From the NCBI GenBank assembly GCA_018394315.1, contig CP074575.1:1830615-1894614 (forward strand): a stretch of 64,000 nt of DNA. Reading direction: 5' to 3'. The position numbers and the translations under genes are program-made. This DNA is from Mycoplasmatota bacterium (GTDB lineage: Bacteria; Bacillota_I; Bacilli_A; MAG-NZ). This document shows, in pieces, positions 48,802 to 57,256 of this stretch. Each line of letters begins with the position of its first letter. The stretch's first letter is position 1. Below the pieces are notes generated by a model. The model saw only the letters and a program-made list of their open reading frames with translations. It searched no databases and was not told the DNA's origin.

Positions 48802-49659
48802 TTACTTATATGAGTCTGCACTAAATTCAACCCAATAAATATCTCTTTCATTAAATGTTTCCCTAACAAAAAACAAGTACTTTCCATCAGGAGATAACGA
48901 TGCCATTGCGTCCCACGATCCAGAATTAATATTCTCTCCTAAGTTTATTGGTTCACTAAATCCATTAGTTGTTCTAAATGATATATATAAATCAGCGCTT
49001 CCAAATCCGCCAAATTTCCTAGAATCAAAAATAATGAACTGTTCATCCGAAGATATAAATGGATGACTCGCATAAAAGTGACCCTCAAACTCCTTTATTT
49101 TTTCTGCTTTTAAATACTTCCTCCCATCAAAGTTAGATACAAAGATGCCCTCTCCTTCTCTTGTAAAATATATATTTCCACTGTCTGATATTGATGCAAA
49201 ATACTCTAAACTAGTACTATTTATACTACTTGGTAGTCTAACTGGCTCACCCCATCCTTCATCTTCTCGTTCAACAAAGTATAACTCACTAGGTTTTCCA
49301 GTTTCGTTTAAAGATGCAGAGAAAAAGAGTTTATCACTGTCAGGTGAAAGTATGGGTTCCATCTCAGGAAGTCCAGTAAATGATATAAACTCAGGATCTC
49401 TCCATTTATTATCTGTACCTTTTTTGACGTGCATCAAGAACCTATTTCTGTCTTTATCCATAGCACCATAGAAAAATTCATCATACTTACGAGAAAATGT
49501 GCATGGATATTCAAAATTTTCTTCAAGTGAAATTACACCCTCTGCAAAAACAATTGGTATATCAAGTGGTTTTTCTTCACCAAAATAATCATCTTCTATT
49601 CCACAAGAACTTAAAACCAACATTGACAGCATTATTAATCCTATTTTCAAATTTATCAC
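48802..49659 (-). CDS. lipoprotein with PD40/TolB-like beta-propeller repeats
   Basis: lipobox LSSC; P.LSPD..KLFFS, PINLG..INS, LSPDGKYLFF. Confidence 0.8.
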   Translation of the reverse strand: MINLKIGLIMLSMLVLSSCGIEDDYFGEEKPLDIPIVFAEGVISLEENFEYPCTFSRKYDEFFYGAMDKDRNRFLMHVKKGTDNKWRDPEFISFTGLPEMEPILSPDSDKLFFSASLNETGKPSELYFVEREDEGWGEPVRLPSSINSTSLEYFASISDSGNIYFTREGEGIFVSNFDGRKYLKAEKIKEFEGHFYASHPFISSDEQFIIFDSRKFGGFGSADLYISFRTTNGFSEPINLGENINSGSWDAMASLSPDGKYLFFVRETFNERDIYWVEFSADSYK

Positions 49660-50241: not shown

Positions 50242-51303
50242 TTATGTAGTCTTAAACCAATATCTTGTATTGTTAGCTATTCTAACAAGAGTTAGCATTA
50301 CTGGTACTTCAACAAGCACTCCAACCACGGTCGCTAATGCAGCACCTGATTGTAATCCAAACAGAGCAATTGCAACTGCAACAGCAAGTTCGAAGAAATT
50401 ACTTGCACCAATTAATGCAGCAGGTGCTGCAATATTATGTTTCAATTTCCATGCTTTTGCCCATATATATGCTATAGAGAATATTAAGAACGTTTGAATT
50501 GTGAGTGGGATTGCTATCAAAGCAATATGCAAAGGATTATTTAATATAATTTTACCTTGAAATGAAAATATAATTATTAATGTTAGGAATAATCCGATAA
50601 TAGTTGTTTTATCAAATTTCTTCAAAAACGAATTCTCAAAATAATCAAGTCCTTTTCTCTTTACAATATATTTTCTAGATAGAAATCCACCTAATAACGG
50701 GATAACAACAAACAATACAACTGATAGAAACAAAGTATCATATGGGACCTCTATATTAGTTACACCTAGTAGTATAGCTACAATAGGAGTAAAAGCTAAT
50801 AGCAAAATAAGATCGTTTACAGCTACTTGTACTAATGTATAAGCAGGATCTCCCTTCGTTAAGTGACTCCAAACAAATACCATTGCTGTACATGGTGCAG
50901 CACCTAAAAGTACAGCCCCAGCTAAATATTCATTTGCTAAATCTGGAGTAATCCAAAGTTTAAATACTACTTTTAAGAAAAATGCCGCAATTAAATACAT
51001 AGTAAAAGGCTTAATCAGCCAATTTGTTACAGTAGTAATCGTAAGTCCCTTAGGACGTTTTGTTGCCTTTACAATACTAGTAAAATCTACTTTTAACATC
51101 ATCGGGTAAATCATTAGCCATATAAGAATCGCCACTGGTATAGAAACGTTAGCGTATTCAAATTTAGACAGTGTTTCTGGTATTATTGGAATCCATTTAC
51201 CTATTAACAACCCCAAAAGAATACACAATGCTACCCATAAAGTTAAATACCTTCCGAACACACCCATTTCATTTGCCAAATTATTTTCCTTAAGTCTACT
51301 CAT
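50242..51303 (-). CDS. acr3: Acr3 arsenite efflux transporter
   Basis: YLTLWV, MIYPMM, NWLIKPF, APCTAMVFVW, ASNFFELAVAVA, LVEVPVML. Confidence 0.95.
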   Translation of the reverse strand: MSRLKENNLANEMGVFGRYLTLWVALCILLGLLIGKWIPIIPETLSKFEYANVSIPVAILIWLMIYPMMLKVDFTSIVKATKRPKGLTITTVTNWLIKPFTMYLIAAFFLKVVFKLWITPDLANEYLAGAVLLGAAPCTAMVFVWSHLTKGDPAYTLVQVAVNDLILLLAFTPIVAILLGVTNIEVPYDTLFLSVVLFVVIPLLGGFLSRKYIVKRKGLDYFENSFLKKFDKTTIIGLFLTLIIIFSFQGKIILNNPLHIALIAIPLTIQTFLIFSIAYIWAKAWKLKHNIAAPAALIGASNFFELAVAVAIALFGLQSGAALATVVGVLVEVPVMLTLVRIANNTRYWFKTT

Positions 51304-51429
51304 TCAAAACCACCTACATTTCTTATTTTGTATTATTATACATGTAACTCTATCAAATACTATCACTCTATTAAATAGTTATCAAGTAGCATAGTGTAAA
51401 ATTCATGTAAAGATTACTATCTTATATAA

Positions 51430-51468
51430 TTAAACTAAATTACTTATTTTGAGTACACATTCCACATG
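51430..51468 (-). pseudogene. displaced native 3' end of rlmD (distal attachment site)
   Basis: minus strand CAT GTG GAA TGT GTA CTC AAA ATA AGT AAT TTA GTT TAA = HVECVLKISNLV*, matching the RlmD HVE[T/C]V terminal motif. Confidence 0.75.
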
Positions 51469-51816
51469 TGTTTTAACTAATACAAATATGCAGAATCATT
51501 AGGTACATTACAAGGCGCCGTTATCGGGGGTGGTAGGAGTTTATTAGAGTTTACACTTTAATGCAAATAGTATTATTCTACTGTATTAATAGTGTTAAAT
51601 TTGGAAATAATCATCCCCAAGTCATGGATACTTTACTTAAACATAACAGTTGTTGTACAAAAGCAGCCCCTACCTTTAAGGCACGGGCTAAGTTATCTAT
51701 TCACTATTAGGTTCATAATTTCTATCTTCCCCAATTTAGAGTATTACTTAAATATCTAATTTTCACAGTGTTTGGATCTTATGATTTTCTAAACTTTCCA
51801 GTACTAGGTTCTTTCA

Positions 51817-52015
51817 TTATTCTTTTCGAAGCTTCCTTGGCTTGCTCAGCAGAATTCCTAAAAATATATCATGTAACATGCCCACTAGATATGATCTTTC
51901 AATATACTCTAATTCTAAATAATAGGCAAAAATGCACGAGCAACTGAGCTACATTTTGTTTATGCTGTCCTAATTCTGAGCTATATTGAACTCTTTTTAA
52001 GCACTGGTTATTCAT
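51817..52015 (-). pseudogene. frameshifted, truncated HD-GYP/HD-domain gene
   Basis: GAAGGAG SD + ATG 52015: ...HKQNVAQL, then shifted frame SCIFAYYLELEYIERSYLVGMLHDI...ILLSKPRKL. Confidence 0.65.
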
Positions 52016-52040
52016 TATAACCGTTCTCCTTCTAGTACTT

Positions 52041-53102
52041 TTACAATTGATTAACTACATTAAGAAGCATAAATCGAACACCTTTTATTTCATATGAAAA
52101 ATCATTAAAGCTTCCAATGATATATGCATCTTTTTCCTGGTGATAAAACATAAACGAGCCTGTTGCCCCTGCAGCCCCCCAGGAATTGAATTTTTTAGGC
52201 ATCAACAAAGGCACGGTTGTAATCTTCCAAATTCCGTATCCATAATCAATTCCCAGTCCAAATCTAGCACAATTATTCTTCATTTCTTCAAGGGTACTTT
52301 TTGTCACTATTTGATAGTTCACCAAAGCTTTCATGAATTTGAGTAAGTCTTCACTAGTAGCCACTACTCCTCCACCGGTATAGTCAAGACCGGCATACCC
52401 TTTAATATCATTTAATCTAGTTTCTCGTATAAAAAAATCGGCAGTAGGAAACTGGGATTTTTCCATTGGTTCTGAATAGTGATTCATATATGAGTGCCTC
52501 ATATCAAGAGGTTTAAAGATGTAATTTGTTAATGTAGCATGAAATGGTTCACCGGTGATACTTTCGATTATCAAACCTAGTAAATGGTAATTTGTATCTG
52601 TATATTTAAATCCTTTACCTGGAGGAAAATGAGGTCTTGCATTATTTTTTACCCAGGCGACTGCTTCTCTGGGCGTTATATTTAGATTCTGATCCTTAAT
52701 AAGTTCATCTAAGAGAGTCCTAAAATTATCAGCTAAGCCCGATGTTTGATTTAGCAGATGTTTAATCCTGATTTCATCAGTACAGTCCTTCCCCTTGTAT
52801 AAATGCAGGTTATTCAATAATTCATGATCTAAGTATTTAGTGATTTTATCATCAAAAGACAACTTTTTCTTTTCTACTAATATGCCGATAATTGCTGAAG
52901 TAAACAATTTACCCACACTAGCCATATAGATTGGCTGCTGCGGGTTGGCAGGCATATTATTCGTTAAACCTTCTGCAATATTTATGTGAATGCCTTCTTT
53001 TTCCGAATGAACTAATAAATAAGCGTTCTTTATTTTACTATCTTTTTGTACTTGTTTTCTAAACGAGTTTTCTATTGATTCTGTTAATTTATTTGTTTTC
53101 AT
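52041..53102 (-). CDS. serine hydrolase, beta-lactamase/D-peptidase (class C-like) family
   Basis: SxxK (MASVGK), HLLNQTSGL, F.PG..F.YTDTNY.LLG, YGYG. Confidence 0.88.
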   Translation of the reverse strand: MKTNKLTESIENSFRKQVQKDSKIKNAYLLVHSEKEGIHINIAEGLTNNMPANPQQPIYMASVGKLFTSAIIGILVEKKKLSFDDKITKYLDHELLNNLHLYKGKDCTDEIRIKHLLNQTSGLADNFRTLLDELIKDQNLNITPREAVAWVKNNARPHFPPGKGFKYTDTNYHLLGLIIESITGEPFHATLTNYIFKPLDMRHSYMNHYSEPMEKSQFPTADFFIRETRLNDIKGYAGLDYTGGGVVATSEDLLKFMKALVNYQIVTKSTLEEMKNNCARFGLGIDYGYGIWKITTVPLLMPKKFNSWGAAGATGSFMFYHQEKDAYIIGSFNDFSYEIKGVRFMLLNVVNQL

Positions 53103-53155
53103 TTTTTTAATTCCCCTCTACATAGAAAATTCTTGTTTTACTACTAGACGTAAGT

Positions 53156-53378
53156 TTATAAGATGCATGACATAATACAAGCTGTGGTATATAATTTTGT
53201 TATACTTGCTAACAATTTCTGAATTTGACTTTTTGTTACAATATCCGTTATCCAACTTTCTCTTACAATATCCTTTGTCTAATGAAATATTACCTTTTGA
53301 GTTCTTTATATAAGCAACACACTCATGTATGTTTCTATTTTTAGTTAATCTATAAAAGGTAGTTTCAAGTTTATTCAT
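53156..53378 (-). pseudogene. 5' fragment of a second serine hydrolase, frameshifted and truncated
   Basis: N-terminus followed in another frame by LLASITKLYTTACIM (SxxK) at 53215-53156; 27-nt imperfect tandem duplication at 53226-53279. Confidence 0.7.
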
Positions 53379-54000
53379 AATGTTTTCCTGTGGTTAGATT
53401 TTCTTTTAATTTTTCATACCATGATATTTCAAATTCCGTTGATTGAATAGCATAATCTAGTGTAGCAAGACTGAAAATTGATATATCCTTTAGACATTCC
53501 ACATCCGTTTTTTTACCCGCACAACTTCTAAGCTGTTCCAAGTGCTTAGGGTTATTTGAATTACTTTTAATAATTTCTTCTATTTGCTTATCTACATCTG
53601 GTATAGAGTTTTTAAATGTATATAAATCTTTTAAATTATTTTCCTGCTCGTCAATATATGCTTGAATTAAATCTACTCTTTTTTCTTCAACAACTAACCC
53701 CATAAAATATATTTTGCTTAGCTCCATGTTTTTAGCCTTTTTGCTATTCATAGGTTGAGAAACCCAATCAAGAAAATGTACTTTACCACTTTCTTTTATA
53801 GAATATCTTTTTTTATTTACACCATTGTCTACATATTCTGTATATTCTATCATGTCATTTGTAACTAACTTTTTTATGGCTGATTGAATAGCCCCCATGC
53901 TATTGCTACACATATCACTAAAGTAAGTTTGTATATAGTTCCTTATTTCGTAAATTGTTAGTTCACTTAGTAATAATAAACCTAATATCATTTTATCCAT
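53371..54000 (-). CDS. PadR family transcriptional regulator
   Basis: ILGLL...LTIYEI, S.GAIQSAIKKL, NKKRYSI..SG...F.DW. Confidence 0.85.
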   Translation of the reverse strand: MDKMILGLLLLSELTIYEIRNYIQTYFSDMCSNSMGAIQSAIKKLVTNDMIEYTEYVDNGVNKKRYSIKESGKVHFLDWVSQPMNSKKAKNMELSKIYFMGLVVEEKRVDLIQAYIDEQENNLKDLYTFKNSIPDVDKQIEEIIKSNSNNPKHLEQLRSCAGKKTDVECLKDISIFSLATLDYAIQSTEFEISWYEKLKENLTTGKHYE

Positions 54001-54002
54001 TG

Positions 54003-54728
54003 TTAAGCCTCCATGATGTTTATTTTTTTCATTAGCCTTGTTGATATAACAACTCCTAGTATAAGGCTTAATACCATTAAAACTATAAAAAACATATCAT
54101 TGCCAACTACATTATTTGCAGAAACAAGCACTATGTTACTAAATAGTGCAGGTATTAAAATACCCGATATAATAGTCATAGGCACAGAGTTTTTTATAAA
54201 TCCAATTCCCATTGCAACAATCCCAAATCCACCTGCTGTTAATGATGTAAGAATGGTAACTTTTATGGCTCTTTGGATTATTTCAATAGGTAATGTATTG
54301 TCAACAAGATGAAAAACATTCTCCGAAACACTGAATACCAAATAAATAAACAAATTACAAATAATCATTGTCATCGTTGTAAAAAGAAATACAACAGTTA
54401 ATTTTGAGAGAAAAATAATATTTCTTTTCTGTGGATAGGATAACAGTAAAATTTTCCTTTCTTGCTTGTATTCATCTATAACAAATCTTGTATACATGAC
54501 CGCAGATAGTGTCGTAAATGCAACCATACTAAGTACGGAAATCCACGAGATAATACTATCGTATCCCGTAAACACTTTTAAATCAGAGTCAAAATTATCA
54601 ACTCCAATATAAGATAAAAAAGCAAGTGCGTATATAAAAGCAAACATTACTATACTTATGATTATACTTGCAACTATATATTTTTTTATTCTATTTCGTT
54701 TTAATTCTAATCTTATTAATTTAATCAC
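54003..54728 (-). CDS. ABC-2 type permease (LanE/BcrB-like)
   Basis: KLIRLELK, six TM segments, LLLSYPQKR..IFLSK. Confidence 0.85.
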   Translation of the reverse strand: MIKLIRLELKRNRIKKYIVASIIISIVMFAFIYALAFLSYIGVDNFDSDLKVFTGYDSIISWISVLSMVAFTTLSAVMYTRFVIDEYKQERKILLLSYPQKRNIIFLSKLTVVFLFTTMTMIICNLFIYLVFSVSENVFHLVDNTLPIEIIQRAIKVTILTSLTAGGFGIVAMGIGFIKNSVPMTIISGILIPALFSNIVLVSANNVVGNDMFFIVLMVLSLILGVVISTRLMKKINIMEA

Positions 54729-55455
54729 GTTTGTTATCCCCTTTCAAAATATTAAAAAAGTAATCTTCTAATCCATTGGGAAATTTTTGTATTACTTCCG
54801 ATAAAGTTACTTCCTCAATAATTTTTCCCTTTGCAATTATACCTATTGTATCAGCCACATGCTCAACTTCACTAAGATTATGACTTGATATAAGTATTGT
54901 CATGTTTTCTTCTTGTTTTAACTTTAAAAATAGTTTTCTCATTTCACGTATTCCCGTTGGGTCAAGACCATTGACGGGTTCGTCAAGTATTAGCAATTTA
55001 GGTTTGTGTATCAATGCTCTTGCTATACCTAATCTTTGACGCATACCCAATGAAAATTGAGACACAGGCTGATTATTTGTATTACTAAGCCCTACCATTT
55101 CTAAAACCGAGTTTATCTCTAAACCACTAACACCCATGTAAGCTAAATGTATTTCCAAATTCTTAACAGCAGAAAGATGCTCATAAAAAACTGGAACTTC
55201 GATAATACTACCAATATTTTTTAGTATATCACTTCTACATTTTGTAATATCCATACCTAAAACTTCTGCTTTTCCCATTGTTGGAATTAGCAAACCTGTT
55301 AATAATTTAAATATAGTTGTTTTGCCTGCACCGTTTTCACCTAGCAATCCATAAATTGAGCCTTTGGCAATGCTTATATTACACTGATATACTGCCTCAA
55401 TGCTTGAATAACTTTTTGTAAGATTATCGGTTTTTACAACTAATGTCTTTTTCAT
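54721..55455 (-). CDS. ABC ATPase (BcrA/LanF-like)
   Basis: GENGAGKTT, E-loop IIEVPVFY, FSLGMRQRLGIA, LDEPVNGLD. Confidence 0.9.
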   Translation of the reverse strand: MKKTLVVKTDNLTKSYSSIEAVYQCNISIAKGSIYGLLGENGAGKTTIFKLLTGLLIPTMGKAEVLGMDITKCRSDILKNIGSIIEVPVFYEHLSAVKNLEIHLAYMGVSGLEINSVLEMVGLSNTNNQPVSQFSLGMRQRLGIARALIHKPKLLILDEPVNGLDPTGIREMRKLFLKLKQEENMTILISSHNLSEVEHVADTIGIIAKGKIIEEVTLSEVIQKFPNGLEDYFFNILKGDNKRD

Positions 55456-55508
55456 TTGTTTTTACTCCTTCTCTACATAATAAATAAGATATGAAACAAT
55501 CATACGCA

Positions 55509-55543
55509 TTACTAATAGTAACATTACTTTTAGCTTTTGTCAA
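55509..55543 (-). promoter_or_regulatory. promoter of the island operon with a palindrome over the -10 (candidate PadR operator)
   Basis: TTGACA-N17-TACTAT with TGn; TTACTA-A-TAGTAA at 55509-55521. Confidence 0.65.
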
Positions 55544-55745
55544 CACACGCAAACATTATTGTGCTATCAGTAGAAAATATCTGTCATTTTATTATTTGAA
55601 ACCCCTTGTTTATCTGCAATTATTCCACCAATGACACAAATTTGTGCTATCAACACAATGATGTATGTTTCTTTTGCACTCTTTTATTAATGCATCTTAG
55701 CTATATTTTCGAATAATATTTAGAGTAAATCTCAAATTTTTAAAC

Positions 55746-55779
55746 AAAAAAAACCTAGACTCTTCACACTGAATCTAGG
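55746..55779 (-). terminator. terminator downstream of rlmD
   Basis: CCTAGA...TCTAGG followed by T8 on minus strand. Confidence 0.7.
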
Positions 55780-55960
55780 ACATTTTACTATCTAAATTTC
55801 CATTTTTGAACCTCAGAATCTACTGTTGGTTGACGTGTTCCCACGTACCAGGTTTATTGCATTTTGATTTTGATACTCCTTTTTAGGTCTTTTTGGAGGT
55901 AATTTTCACTATTCTTGCTAAAACTAAAGAAGTCATAAAAGTGCTTAAACTCCAGTAAAA

Positions 55961-57256
55961 TCAAGGGTTCTGGCGTTGTAGTCGTACCACCGTCTCCACA
56001 TGGGAAGTTTGAGGAAACATATCAAACGGCTGTACCGATTCTATCTTATATTTTTGTTTCAATAAATTTATATCCTTAGCAAGTGTTGACGGGTTACACG
56101 ATACATATATAACAGACTTTGGTTTTACTTTTAAAATAGTATTAATACTATCTTTATCTAGTCCTATACGTGGTGGATCAAATATCATTAAATCTGGGCG
56201 ATATCCTGATTTGGCCCATCTTTTCAAAACTTGCCCTACACTTCCAACAACGTATTCCGCGTCAATCTTATTTAACTTACAATTATCCTTTGCAGATTCA
56301 ACTGCTGACTCAACAATTTCAATTCCCCTAAGATCTTGACCACTATATACATACTGCCCTATACTTCCTACTCCTGCGTAGCAATCTACTATTCTTTTAC
56401 TATCTCCAGCCAATTTTTTTATATAGTTATAAAGTTTTTCTGTTTGTATATCATTTAGTTGGAAAAAATCCAGAGGTCTAACATAATAACTTTTGGAACT
56501 TATTTTCTTTATTAATCTTGATTTACCAAATAGTTTAATAGATTTACAGTCATACAAATTTCCACTTTTCTTATTATTGATAATACTGAAGATACCTGTA
56601 ACGTTTTTAAGTTCACTAAGTCTATTAACTAAATAATCAAGCTTCATTTTTTTTCCTGTAATTAATGTTATTTGTTGTTCATTCTCCTTATTAGTCCTAA
56701 TCATTATTTTATGTAATCCCTTTGAAGAAATATCTAACTTTATGTTATTCAAAAGATTCTTAATTTCAACTAAAGAATTATTAATTGCTTTATCTTGTAT
56801 TAAACAGTTATCCATTTCAGTAACAAAATGACTACCTTCCTCATATAGTCCTAAAACTACTTTATTTTTAAGTTTCTTTACAACTAGTTGAACTTTGTTT
56901 CGGTAATTATATGGTAACTCCATTCCAATTGTTTTATTGACTTTAGGACTTATTGAAGCATATTTACTAAATGCTTCTTTTACTCTATCACTTTTATACT
57001 TAAGTTGCTCACCATAAACTAAATGCATTAAGGAGCATCCCCCACATTTTGAATAAATATCACACTTAGGTTTAACTCTGGAATTCGACTTTTTAATTAT
57101 GCTTTTTATACTTGCCTGATAGTAATTTTCTTTTTCAATTTCTAAATCAACATCTACAATTTCACCCGGTAAAGCCCCTTTTACAAAAACAACTTTTTTC
57201 TTATAGTAAGCTATACCATTTCCATTTATGTCGATACTCTTAATAGTTAATTTCAT
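55961..57256 (-). CDS. rlmD: 23S rRNA (uracil-C5)-methyltransferase RlmD/RumA
   Basis: TRAM domain, CxxxxxCGGC, FFQLN, DPPR.GL, YVSCNPSTLAKD, DMFPQTSHVETV. Confidence 0.95.
   Translation of the reverse strand: MKLTIKSIDINGNGIAYYKKKVVFVKGALPGEIVDVDLEIEKENYYQASIKSIIKKSNSRVKPKCDIYSKCGGCSLMHLVYGEQLKYKSDRVKEAFSKYASISPKVNKTIGMELPYNYRNKVQLVVKKLKNKVVLGLYEEGSHFVTEMDNCLIQDKAINNSLVEIKNLLNNIKLDISSKGLHKIMIRTNKENEQQITLITGKKMKLDYLVNRLSELKNVTGIFSIINNKKSGNLYDCKSIKLFGKSRLIKKISSKSYYVRPLDFFQLNDIQTEKLYNYIKKLAGDSKRIVDCYAGVGSIGQYVYSGQDLRGIEIVESAVESAKDNCKLNKIDAEYVVGSVGQVLKRWAKSGYRPDLMIFDPPRIGLDKDSINTILKVKPKSVIYVSCNPSTLAKDINLLKQKYKIESVQPFDMFPQTSHVETVVRLQRQNP

Follow-up and report, generated by a model that had tools for sequence, protein, structure and literature searches.

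The window analyzed here is a 64,000-bp stretch of contig CP074575.1 (positions 1,830,615 to 1,894,614; Mycoplasmatota bacterium, assembly GCA_018394315.1), in which the 3′ end of the host gene rlmD (rumA) carries a 4,534-bp insert between two copies of a short core, CATGTGGA. A first-pass annotation made from the sequence alone had described the insert as an element lacking a recombinase, integrated at the rlmD 3′ end with replacement of the gene tail. The locus, read from rlmD onward, comprises the following features.

55961..57256, minus strand: rlmD/rumA, host gene (TIGR00479, 318 bits against a cut-off of 184); its final 11 residues are element-derived, and the tail is unlike that of the same-genus draft genome G001
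55995..56002, minus strand: left junction core (attL), CATGTGGA; the crossover, which the sequence itself cannot place, is put at the GA of the Glu codon as in PMC4120198
55854..56000, minus strand: detached C-terminus of a large serine recombinase (LSR), 48 codons in a frame other than that of rlmD (64% over 47 residues to the C-terminus of LSR P0187, E = 2e-17)
55754..55779, minus strand: intrinsic-terminator-like hairpin closing the conserved left-end module; relatives keep the stem despite sequence change
54721..55455, minus strand: ABC transporter ATPase; the top NCBIfam match is of the lantibiotic-protection type, below cut-off
54003..54728, minus strand: ABC-2 family permease (PF12730, E = 6e-6, slightly under cut-off)
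53371..54000, minus strand: regulator of the PadR family with a 97% identical counterpart in Mycoplasmatota bacterium zrk1
53118..53378, minus strand: pseudogene 1, the 5′ ~65 codons of a serine hydrolase gene, frameshifted, cut at about 53168-53178 and fused to the end of another gene
52041..53102, minus strand: intact beta-lactamase-family serine hydrolase, under every beta-lactamase cut-off
51750..52030, minus strand: pseudogene 2, the 5′ piece of one gene (ending at 51866) joined to the final 44 codons of an ABM-fold gene (starting at about 51855) and interrupted by an in-frame stop
51666..51682, minus strand: terminator-like hairpin after the ABM fragment, kept in locus L097
51469..51540, minus strand: final ~70 bp of the insert, for which no relative was found; ACA precedes the core, as at many right ends of rlmD elements outside the left-end family described below
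51461..51468, minus strand: right junction core (attR-like), CATGTGGA
51430..51468, minus strand: displaced native rlmD tail, HVECVLKISNLV, to be compared with HVECCVKLNIKRK in G001
50242..51303, minus strand: host acr3, then arsC, which follow rlmD immediately at the G001 empty site

The sequence bears out the repeated core and both tails as first described. The motif TCCACATG is located at 51461-51468 and 55995-56002; the current rlmD C-terminus reads DMFPQTSHVETVVRLQRQNP, and the minus strand from 51468 to 51430 translates to HVECVLKISNLV. The contrast in GC between the current tail (22 of 39 nt) and the displaced one (10 of 40) is likewise as reported. On its own the core 8-mer is poorly diagnostic, with five copies in the window, where shuffling gives a mean of 0.99, and 56 copies across the 2.17-Mb genome. 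The pattern HVE-[TSC]-x-V has three sites genome-wide, two of which are the insert's junctions. Since the GC content of the insert (31.0%) equals that of the genome (31.1%), composition gives no mark of the insert as a whole. A repeat search of the insert detected no terminal inverted repeats, and when the reconstructed att sites were tested for symmetry, matches never exceeded 13 of 28 whatever the centre, so that the crossover could not be located in this way.

Insertion within the His-Val-Glu (HVE) codons close to the rlmD 3′ end, with a short common core, is what characterizes serine-integrase elements of rumA/rlmD, and the insert shows both. The site is well established as an integration hotspot from work on streptococci and on Enterococcus, Roseburia, Dehalobacter and Listeria (PMC4120198, PMC7168690, PMC10044541, PMC11578063, PMC8386393, PMC13651849).

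An empty counterpart of the locus was found when RlmD was used as a query against 40 related genomes. In G001 the order is cls, rlmD ending in HVECCVKLNIKRK*, 11 bp, acr3, arsC and an ABC pair, that is, the order of the window minus the insert. The first-pass annotation had proposed that an empty site would end in the displaced peptide directly upstream of the acr3 promoter. The uninterrupted rlmD-acr3 arrangement is there, but the tail is not the identical peptide, and the 11-bp gap differs from the 126-bp spacer of the window. This site, together with a match of the insert's left end to integrase-encoding integrative and conjugative elements (ICEs) at rlmD, upholds integration at the rlmD 3′ end with tail replacement. 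As a separate observation, ORFs in G001 contigs (the ends of L033, and L127) jump abruptly between unrelated genes, which suggests chimeras. In two further relatives, G004 and G005, other genes follow rlmD and acr3 does not adjoin it. The G004 tail, HVETVVRLDRKR (L034:15215-15260), resembles the start of the ICE left end (about 24 nt; 83% identity over 30 nt) and is possibly an older scar at the site; it is followed by an element that we take to be IS3-like. The peptide HVETVVRL was rejected as a lone diagnostic, G004 ending in HVETVVRLDRKR with no further left-end homology.

The left end of the insert belongs to an ICE family. Searching GTDB for the tail motif yielded 35 loci, 16 of which match the start of the insert at 78–93% DNA identity (15 over 209–281 bp, one over 67 bp) in a comparison whose database started at the core by construction. 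The residues upstream of these 16 left ends vary by host: eleven are rlmD, two the end of another element, two unrelated DNA and one a contig end. At two loci, L063 and L068, the ICE left end is preceded by neither rlmD nor an integrase end, suggesting secondary-site integration or deletions. At 8 of the 16 family loci the fetched DNA has parA behind a cargo slot of varying content, and at seven of these parB and a giant ORF, presumably a helicase/methylase, come after parA. A single type of LSR reads through attR 70–102 kb downstream in four of the five family genomes searched, G415 being the exception. The G413 element (CP121688, Clostridiaceae bacterium 35-E11), read whole, spans 93,466 bp and ends in a native-type tail; its products include a relaxase domain of the MobA/VirD2 type, VirD4, an ATPase resembling VirB4 (below cut-off), ParAB and an LSR. 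Beside VirD4/VirB4, this ICE (L132) also has a T2SSE/CpaF-like ATPase amid membrane-protein genes, which suggests that this clostridial ICE contains a pilus module of the Tad/Flp type. The family was also found in Fusibacter sp. JL216-2 and Alkaliphilus pronyensis. No convincing match to the left end turned up in 399 genomes of the host phylum (23 weak, short ones), and none in viral contigs.

The same left end encodes, in a second frame, the C-terminus of an integrase. This frame keeps 49 residues in 15 of the 16 relatives, and the window copy is frameshifted in the final codons. Differences among the left ends fall 6, 31 and 89 by codon position in the integrase frame, a count in which related sequences recur and are not independent; the skew indicates that the left end is constrained in that frame. 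The left end thus combines a new rlmD tail with an integrase C-terminus, as rumA/rlmD elements do, and the attL of the insert is genuine. The insert shares with the clostridial family its 250-bp left end, integrase tail, terminator and target site; unlike the family, it has no core region or integrase, another right end and other cargo.

The genes needed for movement are missing. In the window's own genome, which is 93.6% complete, there was no match to PF07508, PF00239, PF02534 or PF03432, and six-frame Pfam scans of the insert's three non-coding stretches revealed no recombinase. When 120 LSRs were compared with the genome by tblastn, the matches were the tail at the rlmD junction and one unrelated domain of a fused protein, so that the detached 48 codons are the sole serine-recombinase trace found in the genome. 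The genome-wide search that had been proposed therefore returned only this tail, and the earlier statement that no recombinase is present holds for a gene, though not for the last 48 codons of one (56000-55854). Elsewhere in the genome, tyrosine recombinases gave ten matches. Relaxase, coupling protein and VirB4, by which an ICE is recognized, were found neither in the genome nor among the insert ORFs. No integrase gene reading through attR at the right end was found in the insert or the genome, which makes the insert a derivative of a rumA/rlmD element and not an autonomous one; nor was an integrase of its own detected, as an integrative and mobilizable element (IME) or an iOriT would have. 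The insert does show the loss of integration and transfer genes that marks a cis-mobilizable element (CIME). Described CIMEs derive mostly from tyrosine-integrase ICEs. The primary papers on CIMEs are Pavlovic 2004 and Bellanger 2011.

The cargo had been listed as an ABC ATPase and permease, a PadR regulator, a serine hydrolase and two pseudogenes, and both the families and the two pseudogenes are confirmed, with no family above its NCBIfam cut-off. The intact homolog of pseudogene 1 is a 338-residue serine hydrolase located after PadR in G619. Pseudogene 1 also contains an imperfect 27-bp tandem duplication (53228-53281) that the G619 homolog does not have; environmental contigs span this stretch too. 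In plasmid and phage collections, matches were confined to cargo genes at 66–76%; no plasmid matched the ORF of pseudogene 1, the Atlas gave no match for the 5′ part of pseudogene 2, and a PadR search of metagenome contigs produced one distant locus.

The cargo is also present in metagenomes. Parts of the insert occur in 20 of the 24 listed runs, and half of its sequence words occur in none. Stretches without coverage were not counted as absent. In four marine-sediment runs from four studies, long contigs span the cargo at ~97–98%, with host flanks present as short patches only, among the matches listed. Again among those matches, contigs diverge from the window at 53168 in X1 and X9 (two of the four runs there; the X9 contig continues into 2.4 kb of other DNA) and at 51866 in X1, X9, X4, X8 and X2 (five of seven runs), and an X4 contig spans 51541-51855 with foreign DNA on either side. 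The breakpoints at 53168 and 51866 show that the window copy lost internal DNA. In addition, joints in X4 and X1 tie the upstream region of the cargo to a left end of the family, in hosts other than that of the window.

The two junctions had been taken as the ends of one element; the right end falls outside the family to which the left end belongs. The right end carries the core and ACA, yet it agrees with the family attR at only 13 of 40 nt, whereas four family ends agree with the G413 end at 35–40, and the two ends of the insert therefore look non-cognate. ACA stands ahead of the core at 7 of 13 junctions from LSR loci, compared with 5 of 234 CAYGTNGA sites in the window's genome. We read the right end as the probable terminal ~70 bp of another rlmD element, which would make the remnant hybrid-ended. 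Among candidate sources, an eroded integrase end of the L103 type was tested and was not significant.

We consider it likely, then, that the insert is a decayed, hybrid-ended, CIME-like remnant of a 70–100-kb conjugative element of the clostridial family and not a designed minimal cassette. On this model, a large serine integrase would have inserted a complete ICE into the HVE codons of rlmD. The left end is seen to supply a working rlmD tail, the integrase C-terminus in a second frame and a terminator, and cargo known also from other hosts comes after it. A second rlmD-targeting element would then have stood in tandem at the same site; tandem arrays at rlmD are seen in G414, G416, L061 and L087. 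Deletions would have removed the ICE core through to the last ~70 bp of the second element, as well as at least two stretches of cargo. What is left would be two ends of different families with an ABC exporter, PadR and a serine hydrolase, presumably immobile and now vertically inherited, and renewed movement would come only from a new neighboring ICE carrying the insert in cis.

Several results weigh against this model. Beyond ACA, the right end shows no significant likeness to LSR ends, since 256 of 1000 controls score equally well, and the tandem step is for this reason one that we only infer. A BLAST search of 300 Clostridia with the terminal part gave no match, its pattern was matched in 3 of 401 against 10 for a control pattern, with no parent found, and viral contigs returned 0 matches for a parent. 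The empty site is known from one draft, G001, which is 55% complete with some chimeric-looking contigs and which also holds 206 bp of cargo at 95% identity at a contig end. Finally, no single contig has the cargo inside a complete ICE, the link to the left end consisting of the short joints in X4 and X1, and the X9 cargo sits behind ars genes, not behind the family left end.

The main rival to a second-element origin of the right end is a cryptic site. A single ICE could have had its true attR joined by the family integrase to a cryptic att-like site in the cargo, a single event that would excise the core region and leave behind the left end, the cargo and a cryptic half-site. Such an event would explain the non-cognate right end with no second element, the left ends of L063 and L068 behind non-rlmD, non-LSR sequence suggest that secondary sites are used, and cargo-related homology reaches 51541, ~70 bp short of the core. 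However, the X4 contig over 51541-51855 diverges ahead of the core and does not read into it, and ACA is typical of genuine element ends. We regard this explanation as unlikely.

The closest source-named RlmD proteins are those of Mycoplasmatota bacterium zrk1 (82%) and WC44 (65%), from which we place the host near free-living Mycoplasmatota. The zrk1 RlmD C-terminus is the same element tail as in the window, and PadR is far closer between the two (97%) than RlmD, in a comparison of proteins; such close cargo suggests recent acquisition in at least one lineage. No zrk1-labelled protein was among the best 120 of 7,951 LSR matches, in which 90% clustering could mask one. The unit might also be a live, integrase-free, hybrid-ended cassette that clostridial rlmD ICEs shuttle between phyla and that entered two or more species of free-living Mycoplasmatota by separate integrations. 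We find this quite improbable; if true, rlmD would be a cross-phylum landing pad, with cargo moving without a recombinase of its own.

The first-pass annotation had left open whether the element is decayed or a minimal cassette mobilized in trans. In the latter case a helper ICE would excise, transfer and integrate it, for which the two intact cores, the recent movement of DNA implied by zrk1, and the existence at other loci of short units bounded by HVE junctions and free of an integrase (L079, 0.6 kb; L137, 1.4 kb) could be adduced. Against it stand ends of two different families, breakpoints private to the window copy, the half of the unit's words seen in no metagenome run, and an attP-type joint absent, among the matches listed, from the four runs compared over both ends. 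We judge such a cassette very improbable: decay is favored by the internal deletions, the nonsense and frameshift changes and the non-cognate ends, and neither helper genes in the genome nor the unit elsewhere were found. The L079 unit, which occupies 0.6 kb after the tail, and the one at L137:11055-12493 have no room for an integrase, and such rlmD remnants seem common.

That the HVECV tail is instead the left end of an earlier element now almost gone, with the 126-bp spacer as its scar and the native tail lost, is scarcely credible: the shorter gap in G001 and the loose likeness of the two tails would suit it, but both tails read HVEC-x-[VL]-K-[LI] directly ahead of acr3, no further HVE tail lies nearby, and even if it were right, the 4.5-kb insert would be viewed no differently.

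The mechanism of the decayed-ICE model has published precedents. Tandem elements at the rumA site (PMC4120198, PMC5704250) and tail exchange as at the insert's left end (PMC4120198, PMC4701971) have been published. The vanG elements and ICE-r of streptococci, Enterococcus faecalis and Roseburia share with the insert the insertion point (the GA of a Glu codon that lies 11 codons before the end of the gene), an element-supplied tail, the displaced tail at the far end and tandem arrays; they differ in being ~45 kb long with an integrase gene at the right end, whereas the insert has 4.5 kb, no integrase body, another left-end family and a Mycoplasmatota-related host (Srinivasan et al., PMC4120198). 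In rumA ICEs and IMEs that use one serine integrase, rumA and integrase exchange 3′ ends reciprocally in different frames, of which the insert shows the detached integrase tail, but integrase, relaxase and coupling protein are missing from it (PMC4701971, PMC5357655). The published route from ICE to CIME with accretion matches the insert, as does the loss of integration and transfer genes; CIMEs also keep att-like sites at both ends, whereas the insert's ends seem non-cognate and its cis-mobilization is hypothetical (PMC5704250). Islands with iOriTs are similarly small and free of relaxase and mating-pair genes, but most att-delimited ones keep an integrase and carry an oriT, neither of which is shown for the insert (bioRxiv 10.64898/2026.01.13.699239).

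Formation of such a remnant is an ordinary outcome at a well-known integration hotspot, and with the mechanism already published and cargo without demonstrated function, its value is modest. It does offer a compact, readable case of how an rlmD island ages, through integration, probable tandem accretion and deletion down to cargo. Mildly new are the occurrence of this clostridial rlmD ICE family in a Mycoplasmatota-related lineage, which widens its host range, and the fact that zrk1, a sister species, shares the rlmD tail and the nearly identical PadR. A literature search, with most subscription journals outside its reach, found no relevant paper on an rlmD ICE element in Mycoplasmatota.

Some minor features of the surroundings can be added. 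The genome has a second rlmD paralog at G000:C1:1968865-1970100, with tail HVECCAVLKRKCDD and without an element-type tail. Between arsC and the ABC pair, a PD40/TolB-like lipoprotein gene (48802-49659) is missing from the corresponding place in G001 and represents a second small insertion nearby. The 126-bp spacer (51304-51429) before acr3-arsC holds a promoter-like site at 51385-51357, promoter-like matches in the region being at chance frequency, and the terminators of the insert would shield acr3 from upstream transcription.

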